Below are positions 1,066 through 54,985 of a stretch of DNA of 55,414 nucleotides, piece after piece. Made by a program: the position numbers and the translations under genes. The notes under the pieces were generated by a model. The model was given only the letters and a program-made list of their open reading frames with translations. It did not search any database and was not told the origin of the DNA. The first letter of the stretch is position 1. The number at the start of each line of letters is the position of its first letter. The DNA comes from a virus (taxonomy: Duplodnaviria; Heunggongvirae; Uroviricota; Caudoviricetes; Demerecviridae). The stretch is taken from IMG/VR virus record IMGVR_UViG_3300016480_000208; one strand, 5' to 3'.

Positions 1066-1230
1066 ATGAAGAATAAGTATTTTCGTCCATTATCAGAATG
1101 GTCACTCAAAGAGCTAGAAGAATCTATTAGTACTACAAAAAACTTTCTATTAAAGCGAGAAAGTGTGGCACTCAAAGATTACCTTGCCAAATTACTTGTA
1201 GAACGTACAAGTAGAATAGGTAAAAAATAA
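1066..1230 (+). CDS. Hypothetical protein (54 aa)
   Basis: AAGGA RBS after the promoter; MKNKYFRPLSEWSLKELEES...; TAA stop. Confidence 0.75.
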   Translation: MKNKYFRPLSEWSLKELEESISTTKNFLLKRESVALKDYLAKLLVERTSRIGKK

Positions 1231-1234
1231 TTAC

Positions 1235-1309
1235 GGGGCTATAGTATAATGGCTATTATCGGTCACTGTCTATGACAAGATGAGGGTTCGATTCCCTCTA
1301 GTCCCGCCA
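1235..1309 (+). tRNA. tRNA-Asp (GTC)
   Basis: Anticodon arm GTCA-CTGTCTA-TGAC; CCA. Confidence 0.9.
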
Positions 1310-1315
1310 ATTAAT

Positions 1316-1391
1316 GCTTCCATCGACTAAACGGTCAGGTCGCCAGACTTTCAATCTGGAAATGCGAGTTCGATTCTCGCTGGGAGTACCA
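1316..1391 (+). tRNA. tRNA-Glu (TTC)
   Basis: Anticodon arm CCAGA-CTTTCAA-TCTGG; CCA. Confidence 0.92.
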
Positions 1392-1394
1392 AAT

Positions 1395-1466
1395 TCAGGG
1401 CGCAGGCAACAGGAACTCCGTTGTGGTGGTTGCCAATAAGTACGCAGCGACGAGTGAGACCCCTGA
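1395..1466 (+). ncRNA. Structured spacer RNA candidate
   Basis: Closing stem TCAGGG/CCCTGA and internal GGCAAC/GTTGCC stem. Confidence 0.35.
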
Positions 1467-1639
1467 ATAAAAAGCAACCCGGCCCTCTCCCAGAAGTGGT
1501 GATGGAGCTTCCTTTCCTGTAATAAGGTTCCTGTCCGTGACGGGTAAAAGGTTACATTCGGCTAATTTAAAGACCTGAGTTTACAGGTGAAAGGGAGATT
1601 GAGCTTGACTTTTGTTCAACCGTACCTCCCACTTATTTC

Positions 1640-1715
1640 ACTAGGTTAGTACAATAGGTTAGTACAAACGGCTGATAACCGTTAGACACAGGTTCGATTC
1701 CTGTACCTAGTACCA
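1640..1715 (+). tRNA. tRNA-Ile (GAT)
   Basis: Anticodon arm AACGG-CTGATAA-CCGTT; CCA. Confidence 0.92.
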
Positions 1716-1720
1716 ATTTT

Positions 1721-1795
1721 GTTTGGTTAGTTTAACAGGCAAAACACCGCCTTGGTAAGGCGGAATCGCAGGTTCGACTCCTGCACTGAACACCA
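1721..1795 (+). tRNA. tRNA-Thr (GGT)
   Basis: Anticodon arm CCGCC-TTGGTAA-GGCGG; CCA. Confidence 0.9.
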
Positions 1796-1796
1796 T

Positions 1797-1871
1797 GCCT
1801 CTAAAGCATTGATGGCGATGCAACTGCCTTGTAAGCAGTGGAACTGAGTTCGATTCTCTGTGGGGGCTCCA
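1797..1871 (+). tRNA. tRNA-Thr (TGT)
   Basis: Anticodon arm ACTGC-CTTGTAA-GCAGT; CCA. Confidence 0.92.
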
Positions 1872-1877
1872 AATTTC

Positions 1878-1962
1878 GGAAGATTCGCATAATGGTATTG
1901 CAGCGGCTTGCTAAGCCGTGGACCGAAAGGTTCTGTGAGTTCGACCCTCACATCTTCCTCCA
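1878..1962 (+). tRNA. tRNA-Ser (GCT)
   Basis: Anticodon arm GCGGC-TTGCTAA-GCCGT; long variable arm; CCA. Confidence 0.92.
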
Positions 1963-1977
1963 ATTATAGGATTAGTT

Positions 1978-2208
1978 ATGACTACTACTGAAAAACTTGC
2001 AGAGGCTGAAGCTAAATTACTGAAACTCCAAGCCAAAGTAGCAAAGCTAAGGCTTAGAAAACAGAATGAGTGTGATCATGTGTACCTACTTACAGGTAGT
2101 TATAATGATGACGATGGGTACTCTCGTAGGGTATGCACTCAAGTAAACACCTATACTTGCGCTTTATGCAGTCACTCGTACAAAGAAAAGCGTGAGTTCA
2201 ATGCTTAA
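1978..2208 (+). CDS. Hypothetical protein (N-terminal coiled coil, Cys-containing C-terminus)
   Basis: 76-aa ORF with AGGA RBS; TAA stop. Confidence 0.7.
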   Translation: MTTTEKLAEAEAKLLKLQAKVAKLRLRKQNECDHVYLLTGSYNDDDGYSRRVCTQVNTYTCALCSHSYKEKREFNA

Positions 2209-2209
2209 T

Positions 2210-2299
2210 AGAAGGTTCGCATAATGGTATTGCAGCAGCCTGGAAAGCTGTAGACACCTAAGTAGGGTCTTGTGGGTTCGAGTCCCACACCTTCTGCCA
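2210..2299 (+). tRNA. tRNA-Ser (GGA)
   Basis: Anticodon arm GCAGC-CTGGAAA-GCTGT; long variable arm; CCA. Confidence 0.92.
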
Positions 2300-2304
2300 A
2301 TTTA

Positions 2305-2394
2305 GTGGGCAACGTAGGCAAACTGGTAAAGCTGGCCTCTTATAGCTTATAGCGAACGAGGCGTTTGTGAGTTCGAGGCTCACCGTATACCCAC
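2305..2394 (+). pseudogene. tRNA-like element with an expanded 18-nt anticodon loop
   Basis: D-arm, GCCTC/GAGGC stem enclosing TTATAGC-TTATAGC-GAAC, T-arm GTGAG/CTCAC, interrupted acceptor, no CCA. Confidence 0.55.
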
Positions 2395-2404
2395 ACTATT
2401 TAAA

Positions 2405-2498
2405 GGAAGGTCAATCCGATAGCCGGCGACGGAAGCGGTCTTGAAAACCGTCGAGGGTTAACAGCCCCTTGTGAGTTCGACCCTCACACCTTCCGCCA
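2405..2498 (+). tRNA. tRNA-Ser (TGA)
   Basis: Anticodon arm GCGGT-CTTGAAA-ACCGT; long variable arm; CCA. Confidence 0.92.
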
Positions 2499-2574
2499 GA
2501 TTCCGTAAACTCTGGGAAAGAGAGTTTTATGATCTATGGCCAGTATACACTTTTGTACTGGCTCTTTTTATTCC

Positions 2575-2651
2575 GGCCCCATAGCTCAACTGGTCAGAGC
2601 GCTCGGCTCATAACCGATAGGTTACCGGTTCAAGTCCGGTTGGGGACACCA
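2575..2651 (+). tRNA. tRNA with CAT anticodon, Ile2 (lysidine)-like
   Basis: Starts GGCCCC like enterobacterial tRNA-Ile2; loop CTCATAA; CCA. Confidence 0.8.
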
Positions 2652-2676
2652 ATTCTTAATATCTGGAGAACATGTT

Positions 2677-2835
2677 ATGTCTTGGCTTCTATTTTTTATT
2701 GCTGTAGGTTTTGCTTTGTGGTATCGTAAGCAGTATATTGAGGCTGAGCGGTCATGCCATTTCTGGATTAAAAGCACAGAAGAGTGGAAAGAAAAGTTCC
2801 ACGAAGTCGTTCGTGAAGTAACTAATAAAAAATAA
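2677..2835 (+). CDS. Small membrane protein (52 aa)
   Basis: GGAG RBS; MSWLLFFIAVGFALWYRK... hydrophobic N-terminus; TAA. Confidence 0.7.
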   Translation: MSWLLFFIAVGFALWYRKQYIEAERSCHFWIKSTEEWKEKFHEVVREVTNKK

Positions 2836-2856
2836 GGGCCTTAGTGCCCTTTTTAT
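2836..2856 (+). terminator. Rho-independent terminator
   Basis: GGGC-CTTAGT-GCCC followed by a T-tract. Confidence 0.6.
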
Positions 2857-2869
2857 TTCACTTCATTAT

Positions 2870-2898
2870 TTGTGAATTTCCCAGTTTCTTGCTATAAT
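2870..2898 (+). promoter_or_regulatory. T5-type early promoter
   Basis: TTGTGA-N17-TATAAT followed by ATAAATTGATGA. Confidence 0.8.
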
Positions 2899-2931
2899 AT
2901 TTATATAAATTGATGAGAAGGAAATTGAGAA

Positions 2932-3324
2932 ATGCACAAACATATTACAGAAGAATCTAGCTACTTCAGCTCAGAAATGCCTACCAACTACTTGTGTGGC
3001 GTCACCTTTATCTGGCAACTGGCTAAAGATTATGGTAATGGGGAAGTACTGGAAACTGCTTCATCCTATGTACCAGAATTTGCCCTAAATGGATTTCTAC
3101 AAGCCCTGCTCCACGACTTGTTTACTTATGATGAATTCCCTCCTTACGAAGAATTTGAGGAGGAACACTCTGAGGAGCTGTTTGACCAAGTAGAGCGATA
3201 CGGGTTCCCTCCTATTAAGTATATTATTGAACAGAACAGAAATTGCGAAGCTAAGCTATCTCTGATATTTGCTTTCCAACTTGATGAAACTATGCGTATG
3301 CGTAAGGTGGTGCTCAATGGCTAG
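2932..3324 (+). CDS. Hypothetical protein (130 aa; the only ORF here that ends at a lone TAG)
   Basis: ORF track; AAGGA RBS; overlaps the next start (ATGGCTAG). Confidence 0.75.
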   Translation: MHKHITEESSYFSSEMPTNYLCGVTFIWQLAKDYGNGEVLETASSYVPEFALNGFLQALLHDLFTYDEFPPYEEFEEEHSEELFDQVERYGFPPIKYIIEQNRNCEAKLSLIFAFQLDETMRMRKVVLNG

Positions 3325-3568
3325 GAAATGGACTACCCTGGAACGCCTCAAAAATGATATGTGGGAAGAGAGTCGTCAGTTCTTTAGAGAAGATGATCTG
3401 TATGACCTGCTTCGCCTCATGTTTCGCTTGAAGGCCTGTGTGGATTTTAAACTTAACCGTGTTACGGTAGCTGTAGGTGTACACAACCTAGTATTTAGTG
3501 CAGAGAACATCGTAGTAGCTATGAAAAATGCTATGATGCGGGTAGAGGAGATCGAACAAAATGATTGA
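3317..3568 (+). CDS. Hypothetical protein
   Basis: MARKWTTLERLKNDMW...; start overlaps the upstream stop. Confidence 0.7.
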   Translation: MARKWTTLERLKNDMWEESRQFFREDDLYDLLRLMFRLKACVDFKLNRVTVAVGVHNLVFSAENIVVAMKNAMMRVEEIEQND

Positions 3569-3668
3569 CTATTGTCCTATGTGTGAGTCGGAAGAATTAG
3601 ACCACTTCATGAATGGGGAAACCTACTGCCAAGAATGCGGGCATACCCATAATGAGGAAGAAGAGTGA
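3561..3668 (+). CDS. Small zinc-ribbon protein (35 aa)
   Basis: MIDYCPMCESEELDHFMNGETYCQECGHTH..., two CxxC motifs; GAGGAG RBS. Confidence 0.7.
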   Translation: MIDYCPMCESEELDHFMNGETYCQECGHTHNEEEE

Positions 3669-3922
3669 TGATTTTACTATTTTCAGGACTGTATGTACTT
3701 CTTTGTATTCTTGCCTTTTTAGTGTGGCATGACTTTATCGCGGCCCCTGATGAAAAGTCCTTGACAGGGAGGATTGTAGTTAAGCGTAAGTGGCTTAGGG
3801 TGCTGGCGCGCATGAGTATGTTGCTATTTGGCCCCCTATGGTTCTTAGCGCTCATACTGGGAGCTGTGTATATGGCAATAACCCGTATTATTGTAACAAC
3901 TTTCCGAAGACTCACTAAGTGA
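3665..3922 (+). CDS. Membrane protein with two TM helices
   Basis: Two hydrophobic stretches; overlaps upstream stop. Confidence 0.7.
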   Translation: MMILLFSGLYVLLCILAFLVWHDFIAAPDEKSLTGRIVVKRKWLRVLARMSMLLFGPLWFLALILGAVYMAITRIIVTTFRRLTK

Positions 3923-3966
3923 TTACAAAGTCTATTGCAATTAACCCTGTATAAAGGATTTATAAA

Positions 3967-4287
3967 ATGAAACTAGAAACTTACGAGTATGATGAACCGC
4001 CAGGTGGTGCAGAACTTTGTTGTGGTATGTGTGGTAGTGTAATGTACTCAGATCCACATGCAGGAAGTGGGGACGACCACCATGTGTGTACTAACTGTGG
4101 GTACGTTTTGGCCTGTAGTTTTCAACACCAAGACCCGCCAACCATTGGAGTAAACTTCGGCTTTGCCAGACCCAATGCCTGGATCATCGAATCGGCAAAA
4201 GCTAAGCTGGCAACAGATATTAATAAGCATAAATGGTGTGTTGTAGAGGGTTCGGACGGCCAGTTCAGGCTCTACATACTTAACTAA
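3967..4287 (+). CDS. Hypothetical zinc-ribbon protein
   Basis: CGMCG...CTNCG; AAGGA RBS. Confidence 0.7.
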   Translation: MKLETYEYDEPPGGAELCCGMCGSVMYSDPHAGSGDDHHVCTNCGYVLACSFQHQDPPTIGVNFGFARPNAWIIESAKAKLATDINKHKWCVVEGSDGQFRLYILN

Positions 4288-4364
4288 AGGTACATACTAT
4301 GTATAAGCTAAGATGGAGTAAGGTTTTCTTTCATTGAGGTACGTTAACTTAGTGAGGAAAACAT

Positions 4365-4763
4365 ATGTCTAGAACAATCAGAAGAAAGAATGGCTGTCAC
4401 CACTTTACCCCTAGCTCTAATCTGCTAAATCCTGTTTGGATTAATGAACAGAAAGAAGTAGATGGTATTTGGTATGTGGGTTGCTACGAGAGAGTCCGTA
4501 AAACTCGGGAGATAGTTCTTAACTGGTATTCTATCGAAGAATACATTGAAAATGAGAGGAAGTCTTACCATGAACGCTGGGGTAAATACGAGCATCGTGA
4601 TAAGAAAGTTCTTCGTCACTATTCAAAATCAGTGAAGCACTATTATAATCGTGCTGGTCGTGCTAACAAGCGTAAGCAATGTTATGATCTTATGAAAGAC
4701 CCCGAGGCAGACTTTCTGCTGGAGACAGCATATCAAAAGGGCATAGTCTGGGTCTTTGATTGA
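4365..4763 (+). CDS. Hypothetical phage protein
   Basis: 132 aa; GAGG RBS; basic MSRTIRRK start seen in many phage hypotheticals. Confidence 0.75.
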   Translation: MSRTIRRKNGCHHFTPSSNLLNPVWINEQKEVDGIWYVGCYERVRKTREIVLNWYSIEEYIENERKSYHERWGKYEHRDKKVLRHYSKSVKHYYNRAGRANKRKQCYDLMKDPEADFLLETAYQKGIVWVFD

Positions 4764-4803
4764 GTATTTAAATCTGAGCACTTACGAGTGCTCTTTCTTA
4801 AAT

Positions 4804-4880
4804 GCTCCCATGATGGAATTGGCATACATACTAGACTTAAAATCTAGGTTCTGTGGGTTCGAATCCCACTGGGAGTACCA
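4804..4880 (+). tRNA. tRNA-Leu (TAA), short variable arm
   Basis: Anticodon arm CTAGA-CTTAAAA-TCTAG; CCA. Confidence 0.92.
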
Positions 4881-4897
4881 ATTCAATAAAATACTTA

Positions 4898-4926
4898 TAG
4901 CCAATAACGCGAAATTATGAGATAAT
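4898..4926 (+). promoter_or_regulatory. T5-type early promoter
   Basis: TAGCCA-N17-GATAAT followed by the shared AAATCGGGAG motif. Confidence 0.55.
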
Positions 4927-4952
4927 ATTCTTATGAAATCGGGAGAGCTTCT

Positions 4953-5315
4953 ATGAAGATGAAAAAGTGTATTTCAGAGGGTAAGTTTAAGCGCGTATGT
5001 GAAATGCCTGACACCACGCTGCTTATCGCAACTGATATACTAGAGAGGCCTGAGCTGGTGATGTGGCATCACTTGGTCACTGTTAAGGGGAATTACACAG
5101 TAACCCAGACCTTGATAGCTAGAAACAAAGGTTATTACTACTACCAGTACAAAGATTGGACAGGTGAGTGTAAGCACTATCGTACAGTTAAGGTTCCTGG
5201 GCATTTAGGTCTTGTAACTGGGATCCCACTTCTTATCAGTAGGGGTGGAAGAATAGAAGTTGAGCGTCCTTTTAAAAGTACCAAAGCTTTCGGAGCAAAA
5301 ATAGAATTAGTTTAA
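4953..5315 (+). CDS. Hypothetical protein
   Basis: 120-aa ORF; GGAGAG RBS. Confidence 0.7.
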   Translation: MKMKKCISEGKFKRVCEMPDTTLLIATDILERPELVMWHHLVTVKGNYTVTQTLIARNKGYYYYQYKDWTGECKHYRTVKVPGHLGLVTGIPLLISRGGRIEVERPFKSTKAFGAKIELV

Positions 5316-5329
5316 GCATTCGTATGAAT

Positions 5330-5492
5330 GCTTTGTCAGTGGTTGACGAGATTGGATGTACTAGGGTTCGAATCCCAGTAGGCCTAATGGTGGCATAGTA
5401 AGTTGCAACCTTTCAATCTCAGGGATAATGAGCATTCTCTAGGGCGGCCTGATCAGCTTTAGGCCCTTCCCAGCTCCAATCACTGACAAAGC
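5330..5492 (+). ncRNA. About 163-nt structured RNA with T-loop and D-loop-like elements
   Basis: Long closing stem GCTTTGTCAGTGGTTG/CAATCACTGACAAAGC; inner GAGATTG/CAATCTC; T-arm GGG-TTCGAAT-CCC followed by GCC-TAATGGT-GGC. Confidence 0.6.
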
Positions 5493-5568
5493 GTTCCTAT
5501 AGTTCAATCGGATAGAATTGCCCTCTCCTAAAGGGCGGATTCCCGTTCAAGTCGGGATAGGAACACCA
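5493..5568 (+). tRNA. tRNA-Arg (CCT)
   Basis: Anticodon arm GCCCT-CTCCTAA-AGGGC; CCA. Confidence 0.88.
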
Positions 5569-5574
5569 ATTTAA

Positions 5575-5650
5575 GCTCCCTTAGTCTAGTGGATAAGGCA
5601 ACTGGCTTCTAACCAGTTAAACGTAGGTTCGAATCCTACAGGGAGTACCA
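5575..5650 (+). tRNA. tRNA-Arg (TCT)
   Basis: Anticodon arm ACTGG-CTTCTAA-CCAGT; CCA. Confidence 0.92.
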
Positions 5651-5706
5651 ATTTCATTTATAGGAGTCGTCATGAATCACCCAACAAAGCTTAAAGGAGA
5701 CAATGA

Positions 5707-6084
5707 ATGATCAATGTGGAACAAATGTTAAACATTGGTAGAGACTGTGGCCTAATCACAGTTTACGAGGCATGGAGCCAAGTACAAAGCCATTGGGATG
5801 TGTTTTTTGAACTTGATAAGTTTGCAGAACAGCAAACCGTACTCAACTACGAAATGTTTGAAAAAGGTTTACTGGAGTTGAGCGAAGATGGCAAAACTCG
5901 GTACAAGTGGCCAGAAAAAGATGAGACCATTGTAGATGCTATGAATCGTCTGGGTATGGTCTATGTAGAACCAGATTGGGACAAGGTCGAAAACGAATCT
6001 AGGCTTGCCGAAGGCAACATATGTGGGCTCCCCTGTGACGACATTGTGCTTGATAATCCAGAGGAGGGTGACGGTGTACTGTAA
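5707..6084 (+). CDS. Hypothetical protein
   Basis: 125 aa; AAGGAG RBS. Confidence 0.75.
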   Translation: MINVEQMLNIGRDCGLITVYEAWSQVQSHWDVFFELDKFAEQQTVLNYEMFEKGLLELSEDGKTRYKWPEKDETIVDAMNRLGMVYVEPDWDKVENESRLAEGNICGLPCDDIVLDNPEEGDGVL

Positions 6085-6334
6085 AGACTGCGGCGAAGTA
6101 ATGGAAGGTGATGGTTTTAGTGTTGTAGTCCACTGCCCTAATGCTGACTTCCTATTCTGGTATGACAAAGAGCCTGATGCCTCCCCGGTACACTGTGAGA
6201 ATACAGGTCAGTGCTCCTACTGTCAAGGTACGGGAGAGGTTGAAGGTATCCCAATTGACGGAGGCCCACACTACCGCTGGATGAAGCCTAAAAAGCATAA
6301 GTGCTACAAATGTACTGGTACAGGACACACTTAA
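6068..6334 (+). CDS. Zinc-finger protein with DnaJ-type CxxCxGxG repeats
   Basis: GTG start after GAGGAG; CKDCG, CSYCQGTG, CYKCTGTG. Confidence 0.7.
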   Translation: MTVYCKDCGEVMEGDGFSVVVHCPNADFLFWYDKEPDASPVHCENTGQCSYCQGTGEVEGIPIDGGPHYRWMKPKKHKCYKCTGTGHT

Positions 6335-6549
6335 TGAAAGTATTCTGCCACAGATATAAGTGGGGCCACGAGGGGAGGCGGCGCAAGCTGTTCTCCCTTC
6401 TAAACTCTGGCTCAGCCAAAATATTGGAAACCAATAAAGACGGCTGGTTATTTGACATAGATGGTAAAGTGTACGGAGTCAATAGGCGTGGACAAATCTA
6501 CAAAAGAGTTACTGAAAGTCAATCACCCTCTGTCGAAGGCACTACGTGA
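6334..6549 (+). CDS. Hypothetical protein
   Basis: TAATG overlap with the upstream stop. Confidence 0.6.
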   Translation: MKVFCHRYKWGHEGRRRKLFSLLNSGSAKILETNKDGWLFDIDGKVYGVNRRGQIYKRVTESQSPSVEGTT

Positions 6550-6691
6550 ATACGTTGCGGCTACGTGGAAGGAGCCGTGGTTTGTTTCTTACGTGGTTAA
6601 GGAAGGTAACACACTATACTACCAAATCAGCAACGCATCTACCCACAAGTATAAGAAACTTACCATGAAAGTACGTCATTTAAAAACTTAA
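6461..6691 (+). CDS. Hypothetical protein (start uncertain)
   Basis: ORF track; fills the gap to a terminator-like hairpin. Confidence 0.5.
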   Translation: MVKCTESIGVDKSTKELLKVNHPLSKALREYVAATWKEPWFVSYVVKEGNTLYYQISNASTHKYKKLTMKVRHLKT

Positions 6692-6768
6692 GCTGCGCCA
6701 CAGACGCAGCTTTTTCTTTACCCTTAAAACGTTACGTGTAACAATGTAAATTAAAAATAAAGTAATCA

Positions 6769-6797
6769 TTGAAGAAAAGCCCTTTTATTGATATAAT
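6769..6797 (+). promoter_or_regulatory. T5-type early promoter
   Basis: TTGAAG-N17-TATAAT with UP element and AAATCGGGA. Confidence 0.8.
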
Positions 6798-6820
6798 ATT
6801 TACATGAAATCGGGAATGGT

Positions 6821-7183
6821 TTGGAGGTATTTATGTGGGTAGCCTATCTAAAAGACTATAATATAGAAGATATGGGTGACGTAATCATCTATATTGAAAA
6901 TACTGTAACTGGTATTAAACGAGAGATAGATGTTGGGCTTCGTCGTAGTGGGGAGCCTGGTGATAAATCATGGCAACCCAGTACTCGAACTCTGGAAAGT
7001 TTTGGTCTTACTAGAAAAGAGTGGGAAGACAATATACTACAGTTCTGCGATTGGCTAGGTAAAGAACTGCCTGTACAAGAAAAATATAATATCAGGACTT
7101 TTGACTACTGTTTTGAAGATCAACTCTCCCTTGAAGCCGCAGAGGCAATGGTTACAGCGTTTAATAACCAACAACTTAGGTAA
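6821..7183 (+). CDS. Hypothetical protein (probable ATG start at 6833)
   Basis: GGAGG precedes the ATG at 6833. Confidence 0.7.
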   Translation: MEVFMWVAYLKDYNIEDMGDVIIYIENTVTGIKREIDVGLRRSGEPGDKSWQPSTRTLESFGLTRKEWEDNILQFCDWLGKELPVQEKYNIRTFDYCFEDQLSLEAAEAMVTAFNNQQLR

Positions 7184-7189
7184 TTAAAA

Positions 7190-7525
7190 ATGAAAGGTCT
7201 TTTCTTAGATGATGAACGCAACCCTCAAGATGTTACGTGGGTTCAATACCCAAAAAATATTGAATGGACTGTGGTTCGTACATTCTCTGAATTTGCTAAA
7301 GTAGTACAGAGCAGGCCTTTCGATCTAATGTCCTTTGACCACGACCTACAGGATTTCTCTAAGGGTACTGAAATGACTGGGTATGATTGCTTGAAGTTTT
7401 ACTGTAGTTTCGGGCTTTATATTCAAGAATACCAGCCCCCTACCGTTATAGTTCACAGCATGAATCCTATTGGTAAGGCGAATATCTTGTCATACTGGAA
7501 AAACTATTTGGAGAGTTTAAAATGA
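7190..7525 (+). CDS. Cyclic-phosphate-processing receiver-like domain protein
   Basis: LFLDDERNP...VVRTFSEF...SFDHDL...TGYD...VHSMNPIG motif series typical of this family. Confidence 0.8.
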   Translation: MKGLFLDDERNPQDVTWVQYPKNIEWTVVRTFSEFAKVVQSRPFDLMSFDHDLQDFSKGTEMTGYDCLKFYCSFGLYIQEYQPPTVIVHSMNPIGKANILSYWKNYLESLK

Positions 7526-8544
7526 CTGTAGGATTTTTAACGGGTAAGTTCGCCCCGCTTCATACAGGTCACATTTACTTTATCAGCAAAGCTGCTACTA
7601 TGGTTGATAAGTTGTATGTTGTCCTAAGCTATGATGGTAAACGTTTTAAAGACGACCCACGACTCTCTCTAAAGAATCGCTTGCTGTGGTTAAAGACCAC
7701 CTTTAAAGATTTGCCACATATTACAGTTACTTTTGTTGACGAAACAGAATGCCGACCATACCCCGAGGGTTGGAGCGACTGGGCAGCTCTGATGAAGAGT
7801 GCTCTACTTAAATTTAACGTAACTAATGTAGATAAGATATTCTCCTCGGAGCCAGAGTACACAGAAGGCTTTAACAAATATTGGCCGGAAGCCGAGCATG
7901 TGATAGTTGATGCGGAGCGTAAAGAGGTAAATATCTCTGCCACGGAGATTCGTGCCAATCCTTTTAAATTCTGGAGCTACATGCCTTCTATAGTGCGTCA
8001 GCATTATGTAAAGAAAGTATGTATCATTGGTACTGAGAGTTGTGGTAAAACTACCTTAACTAAATATCTTGCCAAGATTTACCAAACTTCATGGGTGGAA
8101 GAATACGGACGCAAGTTCTGTGAACAAGATATGTGCATGGATGAATCCCTGCTACAATTCAATGACTATGCACTAATAGCGTCTCGCCGGTATGAAGATG
8201 AAGTGCAGGCCACTAAGACAGCTAACAAAGTCTTATTCGCAGACACCAATGCGTTTGTAACAAACTTCTACTGTAAGCTGTACGAAGGCAATACTCACCC
8301 TCTTGTAGAAGAGTATGAGCTGTTAGAACGGTACGACCTGACTCTATTCTTAGATAGTGACGTAGAATGGGTAGCTGATGGGCTGCGTGTCAATAAAGAC
8401 CGGAGTAAAACAGACGACCTATTTAGGTCTATGCTAACTCTACGTAATATAGACAACTTTGGTAAGCTGATTCGTATTTCTGGAACCTACTCCGAGCGTT
8501 TGGAGAAGGCAATCAAAATTATTGACGAGGAGTTCTTCAAATGA
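7522..8544 (+). CDS. nadR: NadR-type NMN adenylyltransferase / ribosylnicotinamide kinase
   Basis: GKFAPLHTGH (HxGH), ISATEIR, Walker A GTESCGKTT, EEYGR; no HTH repressor domain. Confidence 0.95.
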   Translation: MTVGFLTGKFAPLHTGHIYFISKAATMVDKLYVVLSYDGKRFKDDPRLSLKNRLLWLKTTFKDLPHITVTFVDETECRPYPEGWSDWAALMKSALLKFNVTNVDKIFSSEPEYTEGFNKYWPEAEHVIVDAERKEVNISATEIRANPFKFWSYMPSIVRQHYVKKVCIIGTESCGKTTLTKYLAKIYQTSWVEEYGRKFCEQDMCMDESLLQFNDYALIASRRYEDEVQATKTANKVLFADTNAFVTNFYCKLYEGNTHPLVEEYELLERYDLTLFLDSDVEWVADGLRVNKDRSKTDDLFRSMLTLRNIDNFGKLIRISGTYSERLEKAIKIIDEEFFK

Positions 8545-9257
8545 TCTATAAATTAGGGTATTTTGCTATACCGTATTTCTATGCGATCTACAATGACGTT
8601 GCCACATTGCCTAACGGTCGTAAAGCTTACCTAGCAGCAATGCTTGCCACTATTGTAGGGCTCTCGATCTACTGGGGTGATACGTGGTACGGAATGCTTA
8701 GTGCGTTCTCTGGTGTTATGTGCGTTGTGTTAGTTGCTGAAAAGCGGCTATCCAACTTTGGTTGGGGGTTGCTTAACTGCAGCCTGTACGGTTTTATCTC
8801 TTACCAGAATGGTTATTTTGGAGACATGACACTAAACTGGCTGGTCTATGTGCCATTCCAGTTTATTGGGTTCTACCTCTGGAACCGTAGCTTGCAAGAT
8901 GAAGTGGAAGTAACTTCCAAGTCCCTGGCTTGGTGGGATATTCTGAACATCGCTACAGCAACTGCGGTGGCTGTGTACATCGGACAAGATATTCTGGTTA
9001 AGTTCGGAGGCAACCATCCGTGGCTAGACAGCTTTAACGTTGTTCTGTCGTTGGTGGCTACTGTGTTGATGGCAAAAAGGTACGCTGAACAATGGCTCTG
9101 CTGGATTCTAGTAAACCTCTCCGGCATTGCTATGTGGGTAAAAGCTACGATGGCTAATGATGGGGAAGGTGTTGCTACTTTGATTATGTGGTCTGCTTTC
9201 TTGCTTAATAGCCTATATGGCTACTACAGGTGGAAAACTACAGCGGAACGAGGTTAA
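8541..9257 (+). CDS. pnuC: Nicotinamide riboside transporter PnuC
   Basis: Multi-TM protein; WLDSF...ATVLMAKRYAEQWLCWILVN; coupled to nadR. Confidence 0.93.
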   Translation: MIYKLGYFAIPYFYAIYNDVATLPNGRKAYLAAMLATIVGLSIYWGDTWYGMLSAFSGVMCVVLVAEKRLSNFGWGLLNCSLYGFISYQNGYFGDMTLNWLVYVPFQFIGFYLWNRSLQDEVEVTSKSLAWWDILNIATATAVAVYIGQDILVKFGGNHPWLDSFNVVLSLVATVLMAKRYAEQWLCWILVNLSGIAMWVKATMANDGEGVATLIMWSAFLLNSLYGYYRWKTTAERG

Positions 9258-9296
9258 TACGTGGGGCTTCGGCCCCACATTAAAATAAAGTAAAAA

Positions 9297-9325
9297 TTGC
9301 TTTGAACAGGTTTTCTTGATATAAT
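9297..9325 (+). promoter_or_regulatory. T5-type early promoter
   Basis: TTGCTT-N17-TATAAT with UP element and AAATCGAGAG. Confidence 0.85.
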
Positions 9326-9365
9326 AATTGCATGAAATCGAGAGAAGTTCTTCAAAGGAGTTTAT

Positions 9366-9656: not shown

Positions 9657-9663
9657 TTTTAAT

Positions 9664-47097: not shown

Positions 47098-47499
47098 TTA
47101 GAAGGTGTACTTCCAGTGAAGGGTTAACACACCTAACTTACTTGAGGGGATCCAACCTATAATAGAAGTAATGGGCCCTGTTTTGTATCCCAACTCAAAC
47201 TGTCCAGTAGGTAACAAATCATAATTAATGGGTGTGTCGCCATACCCAGTAACCGCCCCAACTTGTACACCCTAATAAACGTCATCAAACCACCAACCAT
47301 AGCTCTTAGTAACCATTAAGGAAGGCTCATAGTAAGAGTTGTTGAACTATACCACGCTCCAGCCACCATGTTCAAAACCAACAGCCAGATTACGCTCGTT
47401 AAGGTGTCGGGTCTCGTTCTTGTATGTATACTCTCTATCACCGATATGGTAGGATAAGCCCCCTAAAATTAGGGAGCTCTACAAAGTCAACTATAGCAT
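47098..47499 (-). CDS. Exported beta-rich (outer-membrane-barrel-like) hypothetical protein
   Basis: Signal-like N-terminus ML*LTL*SSLILGGLSYH, NERNLAVG, GAVTGYG, aromatic C-terminal F. Confidence 0.65.
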
Positions 47500-49404: not shown

Positions 49405-49899
49405 ATGAACTTTAGTGATTATCTGTATTATGATGAGACTTCCCCTAGTTGTCTAAGGTGGAAGGTATAGCGTGGAAATCTTAAGTAGGGCGACGTTGCC
49501 GGTGGTATACATAAAAAAGAGAATAAGTGGAGGGTGTGTGTCGGAGGTACCAAGTACTATGCTCATAGGATAGTATGGTCGCTCCACAACCCAGGATAGG
49601 AAGTGCCTAAGTTTATTGACCATAAAGACCGTAACGGGTTAAACAATGTGTATAGCAATCTTAGATAGGCTACTCATTAGCAAAATATGTACAACCGTGA
49701 GTCTTCGTGCAGTGCCGTGAAGTTTCGTGGGGTTTTTCATCAATCGGAAAACTCGTGGCAGTAGCGTATACAGGTGGAGGGGCGTAAAGTTTCTCTAGGT
49801 TCGTACAATAACCCCGAGGACTAGGCAAGGTAGTATGATGAGTAGGCTAAGAAGTATTTTGGTGAGTTTTAGGTGCTTAATTTCCCTTCCGGCGCTTAA
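49405..49899 (+). mobile_element. HNH homing endonuclease with a C-terminal AP2 domain (10 TAG in 164 codons)
   Basis: DETSPSCLRWK, AHRIVW, IDHKDRNGLNN..SNLR, WQ*RI...LGSY..PED*AR*YDE*AKKYFGEF*VLNFP; GGAGG RBS. Confidence 0.92.
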
Positions 49900-50033: not shown

Positions 50034-50681
50034 TTATTCAGTTTGCATGATAGCCCCGAAAGTCAGAGCATAATGATCATCAAACAAGGGCAAGGATTCA
50101 TCCGGCATCATGTCAAAATCATCTTGCACTTGTTGATCCAATGCCGCCTGCATCCCTTGACGGAAAGCAAGATCTAGGCGCTCGTTAATGCTCTTGGCGT
50201 CGAAAGTAATCACGCCAAGGGAAGCGGCGGCCTCTAATACCCCGTCATGATCATCATATAGATGGATCACTGTTTCGGTGCGGGTTGCTTTGAGGTGCTG
50301 GAGCCAAGCCGCTTTGTATGCTGCATCACCCGAGCGCATGATAGCCTGCGCCATATCAGGCGGGAATGCCTTGTGCAGGCGATCACGGCTGGCAATGAGT
50401 GCAGTCTTTAGGCCATGCTGGCGAAGAAAAACATAATCACTTTTTCGCATAAATCGGGCGGTACAGATCCCCACGCTCTCCCCCTTATCAATCAGGGCCC
50501 TCATGTGGTCAGCCAATGGGAGCAGACTATCCGCCATGATCTTTTCGTGCTGGCAGGCTTCGGCGCGATAGCGGTCGAGGTTAAGATCCCCATTGGCCTC
50601 AAGGCAAGGGGCGACACGGTGCAGGGAGTCGATGGCCGTCCCATCGAGATCGAACAGGTGTAAGATCCTATCTTTAAACAT
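50034..50681 (-). CDS. dmp: Deoxynucleoside-5'-monophosphatase (HAD family)
   Basis: FDLDGTAIDSLHRVAPC, ICTARFM.KSDY, YDDH.GVL; GAGGAG RBS; TAG-free. Confidence 0.93.
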   Translation of the reverse strand: MFKDRILHLFDLDGTAIDSLHRVAPCLEANGDLNLDRYRAEACQHEKIMADSLLPLADHMRALIDKGESVGICTARFMRKSDYVFLRQHGLKTALIASRDRLHKAFPPDMAQAIMRSGDAAYKAAWLQHLKATRTETVIHLYDDHDGVLEAAASLGVITFDAKSINERLDLAFRQGMQAALDQQVQDDFDMMPDESLPLFDDHYALTFGAIMQTE

Positions 50682-50748
50682 ATTTTTAATCTCCTCAACG
50701 GGTTTTGAAATCGCGCCTGCCAAGGACTAGGCGCGAGTTACTGCATAA

Positions 50749-52314
50749 TTACGCAATGATCTGCATGGATCCATCATTGCAGACGATAACGTGGGAGTGC
50801 GACCAACTGGACGCGCCAACGTTATATCCCATATCGAAAGAGCCAGTCACACCCGATACGGCTACACGTTTGCCGTTTTTATATCCGCTGTGAGAGTGGC
50901 CGATCACATAAGATCCCCCCAAACGCTCGAAAGCAGTATACCCACCCCGAGCCCCATTAATGCCAGCGTCGCCATGATTGGATAGTTCTACCCCGTGAAC
51001 CATGAAAGACTCGTCACGGTTCAAAAACTTGATCCGGTTGTAATCGAGATCCGGCGCTACTAGGCGCAAAGCACGCTCAAGCGGGATCTGATTATCCTTG
51101 CCCCCTTCTAGTGCGGTCTGGTATCGGGGCTTTTGAAGGTCACACCAAAGGGGCAAATTAACCGGATCTTGGCGCGGGTCGGTTTCTTCAAGCCAGCGAT
51201 CCAAGGCGCGATCATGGTTTGAATTGACGATCACGATCTGGGCGTCGGTATCATTGAGCAGCAGGGAGATCACGGCTCCAGCGTCGGCAACATCATCAGC
51301 AACGGTGCGGCCTTGCTGGGTGGCGAGGAATAAGCCGGATCCCCTGTTGTGGTGATTACGGCTAGTGAAATCGAGGAGATCATGAAGAACAACATGCCCT
51401 GCCAAGGTTTCGCTTGCCAATTGGATCAGGCGCTCCATCTCGTCATCATCCAGCTTTTCGGCGTGGATGTCGCCAGCGACCAGAACAGCATCACCGACCG
51501 GATCCGCCAAGCCGTATTCATTGATCGGCAGGCCACGGAAGAAACCTTGACCATCATTGTTCAGTTGAACCTGATCGAAGGTGCCGTCATCGTGAACCAC
51601 AGTGAAGCCGATAATATGATCGGCTGACGCTTCGGAGCCTGCACGACTGACACGGTAGCGAGGAGCGCAAAGCGTACCAGTGGTGACGATCCAGCGTTCC
51701 GGCTGGCCCTTGGCGCGTGGGAGTGATTCAGCTTGTTGTTTGACGTGTGGGAGAATCGTTAACAGGCGATCCCCTGACAACAGCTTAGCCATATTGATTG
51801 GCTTTTTGGCCGTGGGCAACACGTCGCCATTCAACAGCAGCACCGATTCATCACCCAGCCAAGCGGGTGCAGCTTCGCAAGGCATGATCAAGTGATCGGC
51901 CTCATCGTTTTCTCCGACCATATATGAACAGGCCACGGGCAACAGCTCATAACCCAACTGGTTAGCCAGCATCCGGGCAGTGGCAACGGCAGGGGCCACA
52001 AGCGCGGTGTTATTCTGGATACTGAAAACAATATACCCGCCAACAGGCTTAACAGGCGCGGCCTTGAAATGTTGATCGCTGGTGGTGAACTCCGGCGGCA
52101 GGGGCTCGGATAGCCCCTTGGCTTTCTTGCCCTTGGTGGGCTGGTTAGCGTCGAGGAAAGCGGTGATCTCCTTTACACGGCCCCCCTTGAAAAAGCGATC
52201 TGCCAGCTGATCCACGACAGCGGCGCGGCTGGTGTCGAGGTGCTTTCCGTAAAAGTTGAGCCCTAAGGCTGCGGCCAGGATTTCAGCTTGTTGATCTTGG
52301 GTAAAGTTGTGCAT
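50749..52314 (-). CDS. A1: A1 protein (DNA transfer / host DNA degradation)
   Basis: GDIHAEKLD, HDLLDFTSRNHHNR, SNHD, GVTGSFDMGYNVGASSWS; 521 aa; TAG-free. Confidence 0.95.
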   Translation of the reverse strand: MHNFTQDQQAEILAAALGLNFYGKHLDTSRAAVVDQLADRFFKGGRVKEITAFLDANQPTKGKKAKGLSEPLPPEFTTSDQHFKAAPVKPVGGYIVFSIQNNTALVAPAVATARMLANQLGYELLPVACSYMVGENDEADHLIMPCEAAPAWLGDESVLLLNGDVLPTAKKPINMAKLLSGDRLLTILPHVKQQAESLPRAKGQPERWIVTTGTLCAPRYRVSRAGSEASADHIIGFTVVHDDGTFDQVQLNNDGQGFFRGLPINEYGLADPVGDAVLVAGDIHAEKLDDDEMERLIQLASETLAGHVVLHDLLDFTSRNHHNRGSGLFLATQQGRTVADDVADAGAVISLLLNDTDAQIVIVNSNHDRALDRWLEETDPRQDPVNLPLWCDLQKPRYQTALEGGKDNQIPLERALRLVAPDLDYNRIKFLNRDESFMVHGVELSNHGDAGINGARGGYTAFERLGGSYVIGHSHSGYKNGKRVAVSGVTGSFDMGYNVGASSWSHSHVIVCNDGSMQIIA

Positions 52315-52403
52315 TTGATAATCTCTCTCATTTGAGGCAAAGCGGTTAACGGCTAACCGGGAAAGGGCTCTATCATGTGATAGAGCCCTTGGGCTGTTAG
52401 CTG

Positions 52404-52841
52404 TTATGCTTCGAGATCTTCATTACCAATAGGGCGACCTTGTAGCAGGGCCAGCAGGGCCAGCAGAGCCGGACGGCCAGCATGTTCAAGGCTGGCGAAG
52501 ATCTCGGCGGCATTGTCGCCAACGGTCGGATCCTTCTTTACGATCTCGTCCGAGATCAGGCTCGCGAGAATCAATTTTTTCTGACGGGTGGCGCCAGTGG
52601 TGCCAGCGGTCGATTTCGCCTCACCTTTGATATACTCGCCCAATTGGGCCAGCTTTTGGCGAACAGACCGATCACTTGCTGCACCTACTGAGGAGGCCAG
52701 ATCCATCAGGAATGGCTTGCTGTTGGCGGTTTCTACCTTGCCCCCGTCCTTTTCGATCTGGGCTTTGTAGGCGGCGGCGACGATGGCGGCGTTTTTCTCA
52801 TCCCATTTAAAGGCTTTAGGGGCGTTTTTGGTGGTAGTCAT
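52404..52841 (-). CDS. A2: A2 DNA-binding protein
   Basis: FKWDEKN, ANS..L...A..VGAAS..SVRQKL; upstream of A1. Confidence 0.88.
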   Translation of the reverse strand: MTTTKNAPKAFKWDEKNAAIVAAAYKAQIEKDGGKVETANSKPFLMDLASSVGAASDRSVRQKLAQLGEYIKGEAKSTAGTTGATRQKKLILASLISDEIVKKDPTVGDNAAEIFASLEHAGRPALLALLALLQGRPIGNEDLEA

Positions 52842-52939
52842 AACTTAGATCCTTTTGTCAATTGTTAACCCTGATATTAAAGCAGGGCGGGCAGAATTGC
52901 CCGACAATAGCGCCATATTGGCGCTATTAGCTGGCAATT

Positions 52940-53068
52940 TTACTTAGTCATATATCTGACACGGAAAACATAGTCCGAAACCTCTAACAGGCGCATCCTT
53001 TGGCGCGGCGTTAAAAGGTGGTGCAAATGGCTATAGGCAGCGAGCGCGTTATCACAATTTAATAACAT
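52940..53068 (-). CDS. Possible small pre-early ORF (42 aa)
   Basis: GGAG RBS; MLLNCDNALAAYSHL...; TAA. Confidence 0.35.
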   Translation of the reverse strand: MLLNCDNALAAYSHLHHLLTPRQRMRLLEVSDYVFRVRYMTK

Positions 53069-53394
53069 ATTTATTACTCCGGTTAGCGGAACTCGGTGAA
53101 GGACTCAAATTGAGCCCTTGGGCTAGTCTCGCCTTTGTTTCAAAGAGCTTTACAGTGGTCGATCCCTATTCGGGGCCAAGGTGGAGGGGCGTGGGCTTGG
53201 TGTTCGTGCCTTGCTTGCTTTCCATGTGACAAATATTGCCCTACCACGTTTTCATTGTATAACGAGAAATTTTACTGGTGACGATTGATTCCACTCATCT
53301 AGGGAGGCGCTATTGGTTAATGAGACGGGCGCGCGTGATAGCATGGAAAAATCCGGCTGTCAAATTTATTTTTGGGGAGTTAACCCGGCTTAAA

Positions 53395-54260
53395 TGAGAA
53401 TAGATCGCATTGTAAGTTGAGCAACAGCTCTAAAATATTTTTTATCCACAGGTCACCAAGTTATCCACAATTTGCCCGCTCGCGCGCGCCGATTTGGGGA
53501 TAACTTTTCGATTTTCGTGCTGCTACGTGAAAAGATGCGAACTTATCCACAATTTGAAAAATTGGGTCACTCTCCGTTTGTGTAATTTTACCCCAAAATG
53601 CGCTGGCGCAATAGTTGGATGGGTGGCAATACCCTAGTGGCCCAAAGGGCCCAAAATGCGTTATAAAGCGTTCTAGAGCGTTATATTTGAAGCACGTCTG
53701 TAGCGTGCACAAAATTCAAGAAGTGTGCCAGAAAATAAATTTGACAAAAAATTTATTTTGTGATCTTAAAATTCTTGGCATGGAACTTGCTTAAATCTGG
53801 TATTGATAACCACTATCATTGTTGCTTTATACCGGAAAAAAGAAACAATGAGAATTTGTCGCATTTGAGAATGATTTTCATTCTTTTTTATTAAAAATTC
53901 ACATTTTTTGCATATTTATTTATGCAATAAAACTGCATAAATAGTATCTACAGCCCCATTTGGACTTATTCTTTTATTCACAACCAAATTGTGGATAACT
54001 TTCTAATTGTTAACGAAATGTTAATGGCATGAGTCTTGCATACGAAACGAGCGGATTTTGGAGCGTTTCTGTTAACAAAATTTTAACAGAAAAACCACTG
54101 TATAGGCATACAGGGTCAAAGGACTGTATAACTTATTAACAGGGCCAGGAAGGCTCCTAGATCGCGCTGTATTGAATAGTTGGAGGCTGCCCCTTACTAA
54201 AGGCAAGGGTAAATCTGTAGCGTATAGAGCCTGGCAGAGCCTGGATGAGAAACGTTATCA
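53395..54260. promoter_or_regulatory. Fur-box-like 7-1-7 sites
   Basis: 53395, 53804, 53849, 53866, 54246 (e.g. TGATAACcACTATCA, TGAGAAAcGTTATCA); another at 49956. Confidence 0.55.
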
Positions 54261-54985
54261 TTTGACTGCGCCGCGCGGTGGGAGTGACGTGCTACAAAAT
54301 ATGATCCATACCAGGCAGGAAAGCACAAGAAAATAAATTTAAATTATTTTGCAGAAAGGCCTTGACAAGCGCAGTTTTGACTGCGCCGCTTTGGGGTTTG
54401 TCTTTAGTCTTTAGTGTTTAGTCTTTGACTGCGCCGCGGCACGTCACTGGCGTGCTACAAAAAATGGTTGCGAGTCTGAAAGCCCTTTGGTACTATAATC
54501 TTGTGGTCGGGAAATCCCTCCCGACCTTTTCCTGGTGATAGAGGTGAGTTATGAAAAAAGTTTCCTTTGTTCAAGATGGTGCCATCGTCTCCGCTCCAGC
54601 TTCTTATGGTGTGGTAGACTTTTCCATCGGGGGCCAATTGGCTCGCAAGGAACTGCCCGAGGCTGATGGTCGCACTAGTCATGGGCTGGTGGCTATTAAT
54701 GATCTGCGAGATCGTATAGGTGAGTATATCAAAGACTATGCCAAGGAATCGTTGAGCCAGTACTGGGGGCGTATCGTGATTGGTTATTGACAAAATGCCC
54801 TAGCTGGTCTAGGGCATACCCGATCCACTGTAGCACGTCAAAGGCGTGCTACAGTTTTAGCCCTCCTACAGACCACCGACCTATAATACACCACCACCCC
54901 CATCACGCGCTTACAGCGCGATTCAGGGCCCTTCTAGGGCATACCGGATAATCCACTACCCGACCGACCCTGTATATCCATACAG
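54098..54985. promoter_or_regulatory. Two LexA (SOS) box matches
   Basis: CTGTATAGGCATACAG 54098-54113; CTGTATATCCATACAG 54970-54985. Confidence 0.65.
54551..54790 (+). CDS. Hypothetical pre-early protein (79 aa)
   Basis: GAGGTG RBS; TATAAT upstream; TGA stop. Confidence 0.7.
   Translation: MKKVSFVQDGAIVSAPASYGVVDFSIGGQLARKELPEADGRTSHGLVAINDLRDRIGEYIKDYAKESLSQYWGRIVIGY

Follow-up and report, generated by a model that had tools for sequence, protein, structure and literature searches.

Uneven distribution of in-frame TAG codons, most likely read as alanine, among the genes of a T5-like Aeromonas phage

The DNA considered here, IMG/VR virus record IMGVR_UViG_3300016480_000208, is a stretch of 55,414 nucleotides, referred to as the window when the whole of it is meant, and it belongs to a T5-like Aeromonas phage that uses TAG as a sense codon in some of its genes and avoids it in others. 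Its nearest relatives are classified in the Demerecviridae, Shenzhenvirus: the stretch from capsid to terminase is 96.8% identical to Aeromonas phage AhP_Mru1 (hereafter Mru1) and 90–93% identical to AhSzq-1 and AhSzw-1, and over the whole window the blocks aligned with Mru1 have about 80–98% nucleotide identity. The gene order of T5 is kept, with the tRNA island, small open reading frames (ORFs), NadR and PnuC at 1–10880, the D11–D15–dut operon at 11229–17089, the tail, head and terminase genes on the minus strand at 17120–49256, and then an HNH endonuclease followed by dmp, A1 and A2 at 50034–52841. Genes were called with TAG as a sense codon, their starts were refined by the ribosome-binding site (RBS), and temporal classes in the window were assigned by synteny with T5, whose programme comprises 17 pre-early, 111 early and 23 late genes; phages of this type have these three clusters and no middle class, and the early cluster takes in the genes for recombination, lysis and tRNAs (PMC8624392).

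The T5-homologous and neighbouring ORFs contain 457 in-frame TAGs and close only at TAA or TGA. The public records of the relatives bear the signature of such codons, since capsid, portal and ribonucleotide reductase are each broken into pieces. The genes on which the account rests are the following, with GCN denoting the alanine codons and the rare-codon share as defined further below.

50034–50681, minus strand: dmp (deoxynucleoside-5'-monophosphatase), pre-early, 42% identical to T5 dmp; 0 TAG, 28 GCN
50749–52314, minus strand: A1 DNA-transfer protein, pre-early, a standard-code ORF of 521 amino acids homologous to T5 A1; 0 TAG, 53 GCN
52404–52841, minus strand: A2 DNA-binding protein, pre-early; 0 TAG, 25 GCN
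54551–54790, plus strand: ORF of 79 amino acids (orf79) in a region like the first-step-transfer (FST) DNA of T5, with a strong RBS and a coding score of 17; 0 TAG, 7 GCN
1066–10880, plus strand: early block of 18 ORFs interleaved with the tRNA array; 0 TAG, 142 GCN, rare-codon share 0.26
7522–8544, plus strand: NadR, 340 amino acids; 0 TAG
8541–9257, plus strand: PnuC, 238 amino acids; 0 TAG
10251–10880, plus strand: T5.085-like, Ala-rich protein of 209 amino acids; 0 TAG, 33 GCN
11229–11591, plus strand: T5.125-like ORF, the first of the D11 operon; 3 TAG, 4 GCN
11642–12361, plus strand: D11 single-stranded-DNA-binding protein; 0 TAG, 25 GCN, rare-codon share 0.05
12368–12388, plus strand: conserved intrinsic terminator directly 3' of D11, in the same place as in T5
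12404–16614, plus strand: D12 (5 TAG), D13 (24 TAG in 623 codons), D14 (3) and D15 (1), recombination and flap nuclease genes of the T5 early cluster
16607–17089, plus strand: dUTPase (dut); 0 TAG, 6 GCN
17093–17116: bidirectional terminator after dut
17120–17659, minus strand: GH108 lysozyme with a peptidoglycan-binding domain; 7 TAG, 11 GCN
25535–49256, minus strand: native late block, every gene with at least 2 TAG
Late TAG counts: pb4 76, pb3 35, Dit 7, tape-measure protein 80, chaperones 5 and 6, p140-like 16, pb6 4, terminator 2
Late TAG counts, continued: Neck1 13, adaptor 9, capsid 2, protease 2, decoration 2, portal 6, TerL 16, TerS 4
49405–49899, plus strand: HNH-AP2 homing-type endonuclease; 10 TAG, 7 GCN

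When the counts are set against alanine codons, the four pre-early genes (dmp, A1, A2 and orf79) have 0 TAG to 113 GCN and the block at 1066–10880 has 0 to 142, while the D11–dut operon has 36 to 115, a TAG/(TAG+GCN) of 36/151 (0.24), and the late genes have 421 to 972, or 421/1393 (0.30). At p = 0.30 the chance of meeting no TAG in either 113 or 142 alanine positions is below 1e-17, and the skew is therefore far beyond chance. Late genes carrying TAG number 23 of 24, in the window as in Mru1, and in native late genes TAG takes up about 0.30–0.35 of the alanine codons. An earlier note on this DNA had listed as TAG-free A1, dmp, A2, NadR, PnuC and the Ala-rich 209-residue ORF, as nearly or wholly so D11 (0/239), dut (0/160), capsid (2/460) and pb6 (4/379), and as dense HNH-AP2 (10/164), the GH108 lysozyme (7/179) and TerL (16/430); all of these counts were reproduced, and the unevenness that it described withstands normalisation per alanine. 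A difference in GC content at third codon positions or in alanine content was considered as the cause of the split and rejected, alanine plus TAG making up 0.076 of the TAG-free and 0.077 of the TAG-rich early genes.

The onset of TAG at 11229, also asserted by the earlier note, holds as well, the first in-frame TAG of the plus-strand genes being codon 13 of ORF 11229–11591. That ORF is preceded by a hairpin (10889–10909) and a 320-bp AT-rich gap, and 11229 therefore begins a new transcription unit. Along the D11 operon the TAGs per gene run 3, 0, 5, 24, 3, 1 and 0. Upstream of 11229 the sole ORF touching a TAG is 2932–3324, which ends in one. As an observation apart, the reading frame 2932–3357 is, within the TAG-free early block, the only well-supported ORF in which a TAG (3322–3324) serves as a standard-code stop; with an active suppressor a tail of 11 residues would be added, and likewise in the Mru1 ortholog (45442–45867).

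TAG is most likely read as alanine in this phage. The T5 residues aligned opposite TAG are alanine in 24% of cases (3.4 times the background), serine in 11% and glutamine in 6–7%, and with empirical substitution profiles the log-likelihoods for the meaning of TAG are −660.5 for alanine, −709.8 for serine and −761.5 for glutamine. The glutamine of code 15 was rejected on its low share of the aligned positions and because alanine is ahead of it by 101 log-likelihood units. Fibre TAGs aligned to the T4-like, standard-code Aeromonas phage phiAS4 have alanine opposite in 8 of 14 cases, and opposite the lineage-specific TAGs that distinguish Mru1 from the relative TS3 alanine ranks first, with 100 of about 470 (serine 61, glutamine 56). 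Where close relatives differ by a recent TAG change, the codon most often found on the other side is CAG, which fits a single C-to-T step; at greater divergence alanine dominates.

The window itself lacks a tRNA(CTA). Mru1, AhSzq-1 and TS3 have one at the syntenic position, a short distance upstream of where the window begins, and that of Mru1 and of AhSzq-1 immediately precedes tRNA-Ala(TGC). The suppressor tRNA of the latter two phages carries G3:U70 and A73, as read from the alignment with the adjacent tRNA-Ala, and we infer that it is charged with alanine. The TAG decoder would then be a phage tRNA(CUA) bearing the identity pair G3:U70 of alanyl-tRNA synthetase, and synteny with the relatives would place its gene about 0.8–1.5 kb upstream of the window. 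Neither a phage release factor nor an aminoacyl-tRNA synthetase was seen in the window. For the ORFs with 80–105 TAGs, read-through of each such codon would have to reach about 99% late in infection.

After tRNA-Met, at 135–210, stands a tRNA-like gene whose acceptor and T arms are conserved and whose anticodon arm differs in each relative, with a TCA 'anticodon' in Mru1, a CTTCGG tetraloop-like hairpin in TS3 and a GC-rich irregular loop in the window. A second, opal suppressor at this site was considered, the Mru1 copy being called tRNA-SeC(TCA) by ARAGORN, and rejected, both for the variation of the anticodon arm in every relative and because TGA closes about one quarter of the genes. The gene looks like the stable tRNA-like RNAs annotated in T5.

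The early class as a whole is mixed. In Mru1, TAG/(TAG+GCN) is about 0.01 in pre-early, 0.10–0.12 in early and 0.33 in late genes, and 33–36% of the early genes contain TAG. Those with TAG include holin (TAG/GCN 16/14), the D10 helicase (16/23), the D6 helicase (12/24), primase (5/15), nrdA (7/58) and nrdB (4/30), whereas DNA polymerase (0/62), the origin-binding protein (0/65), ligase, D2, D3 and the NAD genes are free of it; primase, DNA polymerase and the D10 helicase, with 5, 0 and 16 TAGs, are neighbours on one strand. The replication block is inverted relative to T5. In the relatives, all HNH homing-type endonuclease genes are extremely TAG-dense at any genome position, with TAG/GCN up to 12/1; examples from the Mru1 loci are 6382–7092 and 30556–31080 (L004), 26444–27166 (L009) and 23570–24286 (L008).

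Comparison among the relatives separates a conserved TAG-free set from genes in which TAG turns over fast. The 66 orthologs that are TAG-free in Mru1 (11,342 codons) have gained 2 TAGs in TS3 against 199 expected at the rate observed in TAG-bearing genes (P ~1e-82), and in the comparison with AhSzq-1 4 were observed against 45 expected, a deficit which indicates that selection keeps TAG out of the TAG-free set. The orthologs of the block at 1066–10880 are TAG-free in Mru1 and TS3, and no TAG occurs in the pre-early genes of the window, Mru1, AhSzq-1 or TS3. Late genes of Mru1 and TS3 share 110 of 373 TAG sites, with 135 and 128 private ones, and despite this turnover their TAG fraction is the same (0.354 and 0.358). 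Amino acid identity between the two phages is 71% for TAG-free and 65% for TAG-bearing genes. Lightly recoded genes can also flip to zero: the 7, 4, 3 and 2 TAGs that nrdA, nrdB, D14 and capsid have in Mru1 are all absent from TS3. It follows that not every late gene needs TAG as a gate. At the loci where the two reductase genes were compared (TS3 L011 39101–42660 and Mru1 L004 8957–12526), nrdA and nrdB appear to sit at the boundary of tolerance, and they could date TAG gain.

TAG is also linked to the choice of the other codons. The first axis of synonymous codon usage, computed with alanine excluded, takes up 28% of the variance and correlates with the TAG fraction (rho 0.69, p 2e-11), with capsid, D11 and A1 together at one extreme; TAG-free genes prefer CTG, CGC, CGT, ATC and GGC, and TAG-rich genes ATA, AGG, AGA, CTA, TTA and TCA. 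The share of these last six codons, here called the rare-codon share, correlates with the TAG fraction at rho 0.69 overall, 0.70 within early and 0.57 within late genes. A binomial model loses 150 log-likelihood units without the rare-codon term and 33 without stage, and at equal rare-codon share the TAG fraction of early and late genes still differs (0.010 versus 0.251; 0.164 versus 0.333). Stage thus retains an effect on TAG beyond the rare-codon share, and the TAG split tracks dependence on phage tRNAs more closely than it tracks expression stage. Phage tRNAs for AGG, AGA and TTA lie inside the window, and one for CTA just upstream:

4804–4880, plus strand: tRNA Leu(TAA), for host-rare codons
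5493–5568, plus strand: tRNA Arg(CCT), for host-rare codons
5575–5650, plus strand: tRNA Arg(TCT), for host-rare codons

An Ile2-type tRNA among the CAT tRNAs is an unconfirmed candidate for serving ATA, and a tRNA for TCA was not found in the window or in Mru1. The block at 1066–10880 has a rare-codon share (0.26) near that of the late genes (0.32), yet no TAG in 142 alanine positions, which points to a timing effect specific to TAG. Such a block, tolerant of rare codons and not of TAG, is what would be expected if, without the phage tRNAs, rare codons merely slow translation but TAG is fatal. A1 has a host-rare-codon share of 0.10. The codon usage of the 209-residue protein at 10251–10880 is as host-optimal as that of the capsid (rare-codon share 0.02), and therefore suggests a very abundant early protein; its match to PHROG 1491 carries the label 'tail fiber protein', yet the gene lies in the early region, and the label is probably wrong. 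Virion proteins present in more copies have a lower TAG fraction (rho −0.65, p 0.016, n = 13), the copy numbers being those of the T5 structure (PMC11313276), and the remark of the earlier note that abundant proteins are poor in TAG is borne out for the virion.

The pre-early genes A1, A2 and dmp are clustered at the genome end beside the terminase side, and the DNA beyond A2 completes the picture:

53442–55016, strand not assigned: repeat-rich, nearly non-coding stretch after A2, with all 5 perfect DnaA boxes of the window (0.4 expected)

Direct and inverted repeats surround the boxes within this stretch, TTTGACTGCGCCGC for instance occurring three times, and orf79, which lies inside the stretch, has no family match. 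All perfect DnaA boxes of T5 lie in its terminal repeats, that is, in its FST DNA, and 53442–55016 resembles the promoter and injection-stop region of the T5 terminal repeat. The terminal repeat is collapsed in the assemblies, and the cluster of DnaA boxes and repeats that is like it extends over 53442–55363. Immediately beyond the last DnaA box, a degenerate tandem array with a period of 8/16 nt and a consensus near CTAGACGTCTAGATGG, in about 14 to 28 units, occupies 55129–55363 at the outer end of the FST-like region; it may be part of an injection-stop or terminal-repeat boundary. By homology with T5, the phage DNA would enter in two steps that depend on A1 and A2.

The late region also includes sequence nearly free of TAG, in the L-shaped tail fibre and its neighbour:

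17708–18190, minus strand: fibre-associated gene of 160 amino acids, imported from a T4-like Aeromonas phage; 0 TAG, 16 GCN
18222–22037, minus strand: L-shaped tail fibre, C-terminal 1271 codons, GC 0.52–0.59; 3 TAG
22038–25535, minus strand: N-terminal 1166 codons of the same ORF, with a phage_tail_N domain; 102 TAG (0.31 of the alanine positions)

The C-terminal part includes phiAS4-like distal-fibre segments and a Peptidase_S74 chaperone domain, and some of its segments are 88–89% identical in nucleotides to the distal fibre gene of phiAS4. The gene at 17708–18190 has 89% amino acid identity to phiAS4 ORF0039, a neighbour of the fibre gene in that phage, and is absent from Mru1 and AhSzq-1. 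From this identity and this absence it follows that the TAG-free late sequence in the window is a recent import, and the fibre tip and chaperone, which hold 3 TAGs in 1431 codons, match phiAS4 at 86–89% of nucleotides and are lacking in Mru1 and AhSzq-1, can be traced by their sequence to a T4-like phage. Older phiAS4-like fibre segments (42% identity) already have TAGs. The native half contains Ala-rich repeats of about 105 codons; in the repeats at 22038–25235, GCN and TAG together make up about 40% of the codons, and TAGs recur at fixed repeat positions. Elsewhere in the late region, an ORF of 133 amino acids at 47098–47499, between a T5.153-like gene and TerL, has 4 TAG and 2 GCN; its match (E 4e-19) is to the C-terminal portion of a PHROG that bears the label PagP-like lipid A acylation protein.

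The sequences establish how TAG is distributed, that this distribution is conserved, that selection acts against TAG and that TAG is tied to codon usage; the timing, the FST boundary and the charging of the tRNA are inferred. Taken together, we consider it probable that the TAG level of each gene is set by selection on the need for translation without the phage decoder, so that the TAG load would reflect whether, and how hard, a gene must be translated in its absence. The FST-like genes dmp, A1 and A2 would arrive first and do their work ahead of the remaining genome, the tRNA island included; a TAG there would be lethal, and its absence would be explained, if injection of the T5 type holds, because the decoder gene has not yet arrived. 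TAG would likewise be excluded from the ORFs of the tRNA island and from a conserved early subset, namely D11, dut, DNA polymerase, ligase, the origin-binding protein and the NAD-salvage genes. Elsewhere it would turn over rapidly around about one third of the alanine positions, at a lower level in very abundant proteins, and newly imported modules would begin TAG-free. TAG would then be the extreme of a wider split, in which TAG-free genes are host-optimal and TAG-rich genes use ATA, AGG, AGA, CTA and TTA, codons expected to be served by the phage's own tRNAs.

The earlier note had gone further and proposed a strict partition by stage, with pre-early and early genes in the host code, middle and late genes recoded, and the switching-on of the decoder as a timer gating recombination, assembly and lysis. 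This we regard as unlikely, although both ends of the programme agree with it: no TAG in the pre-early genes (0/113) or in the block at 1066–10880 (0/142), TAG in 23 of 24 late genes, an independent effect of stage in the model (the 33 log-likelihood units), and TAG-dense holin (16), lysozyme (7) and HNH endonucleases, which fit the bias of recoded gut phages towards lysis and homing-endonuclease genes (bioRxiv 10.1101/2021.08.26.457843). What stands of the proposal is a TAG-free pre-early class and a native late class that nearly always bears TAG; what does not is the part between them, as phages of the T5 type lack a middle class and keep recombination and lysis genes in the early cluster, the D11 operon is mixed within itself, one third of the early genes carry TAG, and a TAG-free polymerase stands beside primase and D10 helicase on one strand. 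Late genes also work without TAG, namely the TS3 capsid and the imported fibre tip and chaperone, and nrdA and nrdB pass from 7 and 4 TAGs to none between relatives. A gating signature was sought, and TAGs were found to be spread along genes like GCN, with no clustering near the starts (Kolmogorov–Smirnov p 0.67), and early first TAGs to be no more frequent than TAG density predicts; a consensus promoter scan gave 13 against 15.6 expected in shuffles, without signal, and promoter class is therefore unusable for defining stages. The narrower claim that the first-injected genes are written in the host code fares better, in that neither the window nor any of the three relatives has a TAG in them and the suppressor gene lies far outside their region. 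Translational cost without timing, by which suppression is incomplete, TAG is the worst codon and expression level purges it, seems improbable to us as the whole account. It would explain the correlation with virion copy number, the rare-codon share as the strongest predictor, and the place of capsid, D11, A1 and the T5.085-like protein, which have the most host-optimal codons and no or almost no TAG; it does not explain why the low-abundance NadR (rare-codon share 0.26), the small ORFs of the tRNA island (0.23–0.33) and the origin-binding protein are TAG-free across relatives, why early genes stay far below late ones at equal rare-codon share, or why the pre-early genes are TAG-free in all four phages.

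Recent ancestry, by which TAG-free genes would be imports from standard-code phages or hosts and too young to have acquired TAG, holds for the fibre tip and chaperone, where the contrast with the native half is 3 TAGs in 1431 codons to 102 in 1166. As a general explanation it is very improbable, since the TAG-free genes of the early and pre-early classes are common to the relatives, keep their synteny and have diverged to a similar degree as the TAG-bearing ones (71% versus 65% identity), their 2 TAG gains fall far below the 199 expected, and several of them, such as A1, DNA polymerase, ligase and D11, are core T5 genes. That the host itself reads TAG as alanine, with the skew unrelated to a phage decoder, is hardly credible, and nothing found in the phage sequences speaks for it: Aeromonas uses code 11, 2 of the 14 genes sampled from a T4-like Aeromonas phage of standard code terminate in TAG, the phage brings its own tRNA(CUA), and selection against TAG in the first-injected genes would lack a cause.

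Several points weigh against setting the TAG level by the need to do without the decoder. The timing is taken entirely from T5 synteny, the extent of the FST DNA is deduced by analogy with a terminal-repeat boundary that is collapsed in the assemblies, and the genome-wide statistics are those of the relatives Mru1, AhSzq-1 and TS3. Whether timing or expression level is at work, rare codons and TAG should be avoided, and the two influences are not fully separable from sequence. Polymerase, ligase and origin-binding protein are TAG-free and the replicative helicase, the D10 helicase and primase TAG-dense, although presumably all are needed simultaneously, a difference which this account leaves unexplained, and nothing found in the analysis explains how release factor 1 (RF1) is overcome in the ORFs with 80–105 TAGs.

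A wider proposal, which we put forward only tentatively and believe somewhat less than we doubt, is that two translation regimes exist, a host-readable core and a set of genes locked behind the phage tRNA array, to which the alanine amber suppressor would be the key. The core would comprise the FST genes, the tRNA island, DNA polymerase, ligase, the origin-binding protein and NAD salvage, and the locked set the helicases, primase, recombination, lysis, homing endonucleases and virion parts. Two-step DNA injection, as the T5-like layout implies, would enforce the regimes physically, and a checkpoint would result in which proteins of the fork, of lysis and of assembly are completed only after second-step transfer and with the decoder running. 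The lock might also keep these genes from being expressed in a cell of the wrong kind or exploited by competing phages.

The idea that a private code serves timing rests almost wholly on uncultured gut phages, and here the pattern occurs in cultured, lytic T5-like phages whose host is easily grown. Alanine, if charged through G3:U70, needs no phage synthetase; if injection of the T5 type operates, the first genes cannot see the decoder at all; and several sequenced relatives combine rapid turnover of TAG sites with a set of genes kept strictly free of them. With a different amino acid, a layout that suggests two-step injection and sequenced relatives, gating, suppression cost and the fate of RF1 therefore become directly testable. 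Re-annotation with code 15 would put glutamine where alanine is most likely meant.

With regard to known systems, the nearest likeness is to the recoded gut phages (crAss-like, Lak, Agate and Jade among others; codes 15 and 4) and to the model of Borges et al. for them, in which early genes and decoder genes keep the standard code, structural and lysis genes and homing endonucleases are recoded, and replication genes vary (bioRxiv 10.1101/2021.08.26.457843). The present phage shares with them a presumed standard-code host, a phage suppressor tRNA, recoded structural and lysis genes, variable replication genes, strongly recoded homing endonucleases and a decoder neighbourhood in the standard code. 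The resemblance to the model for code-15 phages that the earlier note had drawn is thus sound for the early-standard, late-recoded pattern and fails for the amino acid, because TAG aligns with alanine and not with glutamine. Unlike those phages, this one belongs to a T5-like Shenzhenvirus lineage with cultured isolates, its layout implies a two-step entry that would separate the first genes from the decoder, and its split tracks the axis of host-tRNA versus phage-tRNA codons better than it does gene module or stage. Sporadic stop reassignment in Demerecviridae was reported by Cook et al. 2024 (PMC11210395), with table 15 (glutamine) assigned by software and without an analysis of the amino acid identity or of which genes are recoded; nothing specific was found in the literature on TAG-to-Ala recoding in phages or on recoding in Shenzhenvirus. 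Known beforehand, then, is the early-standard, late-recoded pattern, and new here are alanine in place of glutamine, the cultured T5-like lineage and the split along the codon axis.

With T5 itself the phage has in common the synteny of dmp–A1–A2, of the tRNA island, of D11–terminator–D12–D15–dut and of the tail, head and terminase genes, as well as DnaA boxes confined to the FST or terminal-repeat region; it differs from T5, which uses the standard code, by the alanine amber suppressor, the NAD-salvage genes, a mosaic L-fibre and the inverted replication block. Phage tRNA sets reportedly compensate for host-rare codons, as Bailly-Bechet et al. are said to have described in 2007, and the coincidence of genes rich in ATA, AGG, AGA, CTA and TTA with tRNAs Arg(CCT), Arg(TCT), Leu(TAA) and Leu(TAG) is of that kind; the same gene set, however, uses a codon that the host cannot read, and the dependence is therefore absolute and not kinetic. 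The closest counterparts of the decoder are the amber suppressors tRNA-Ala(CUA) reportedly engineered in E. coli in 1988 by Hou and Schimmel and by McClain and Foss, in work on the G3:U70 identity. As in those, a CUA anticodon is carried on a tRNA with G3:U70 and A73; unlike those, the phage suppressor is natural and phage-borne and serves hundreds of sense positions.

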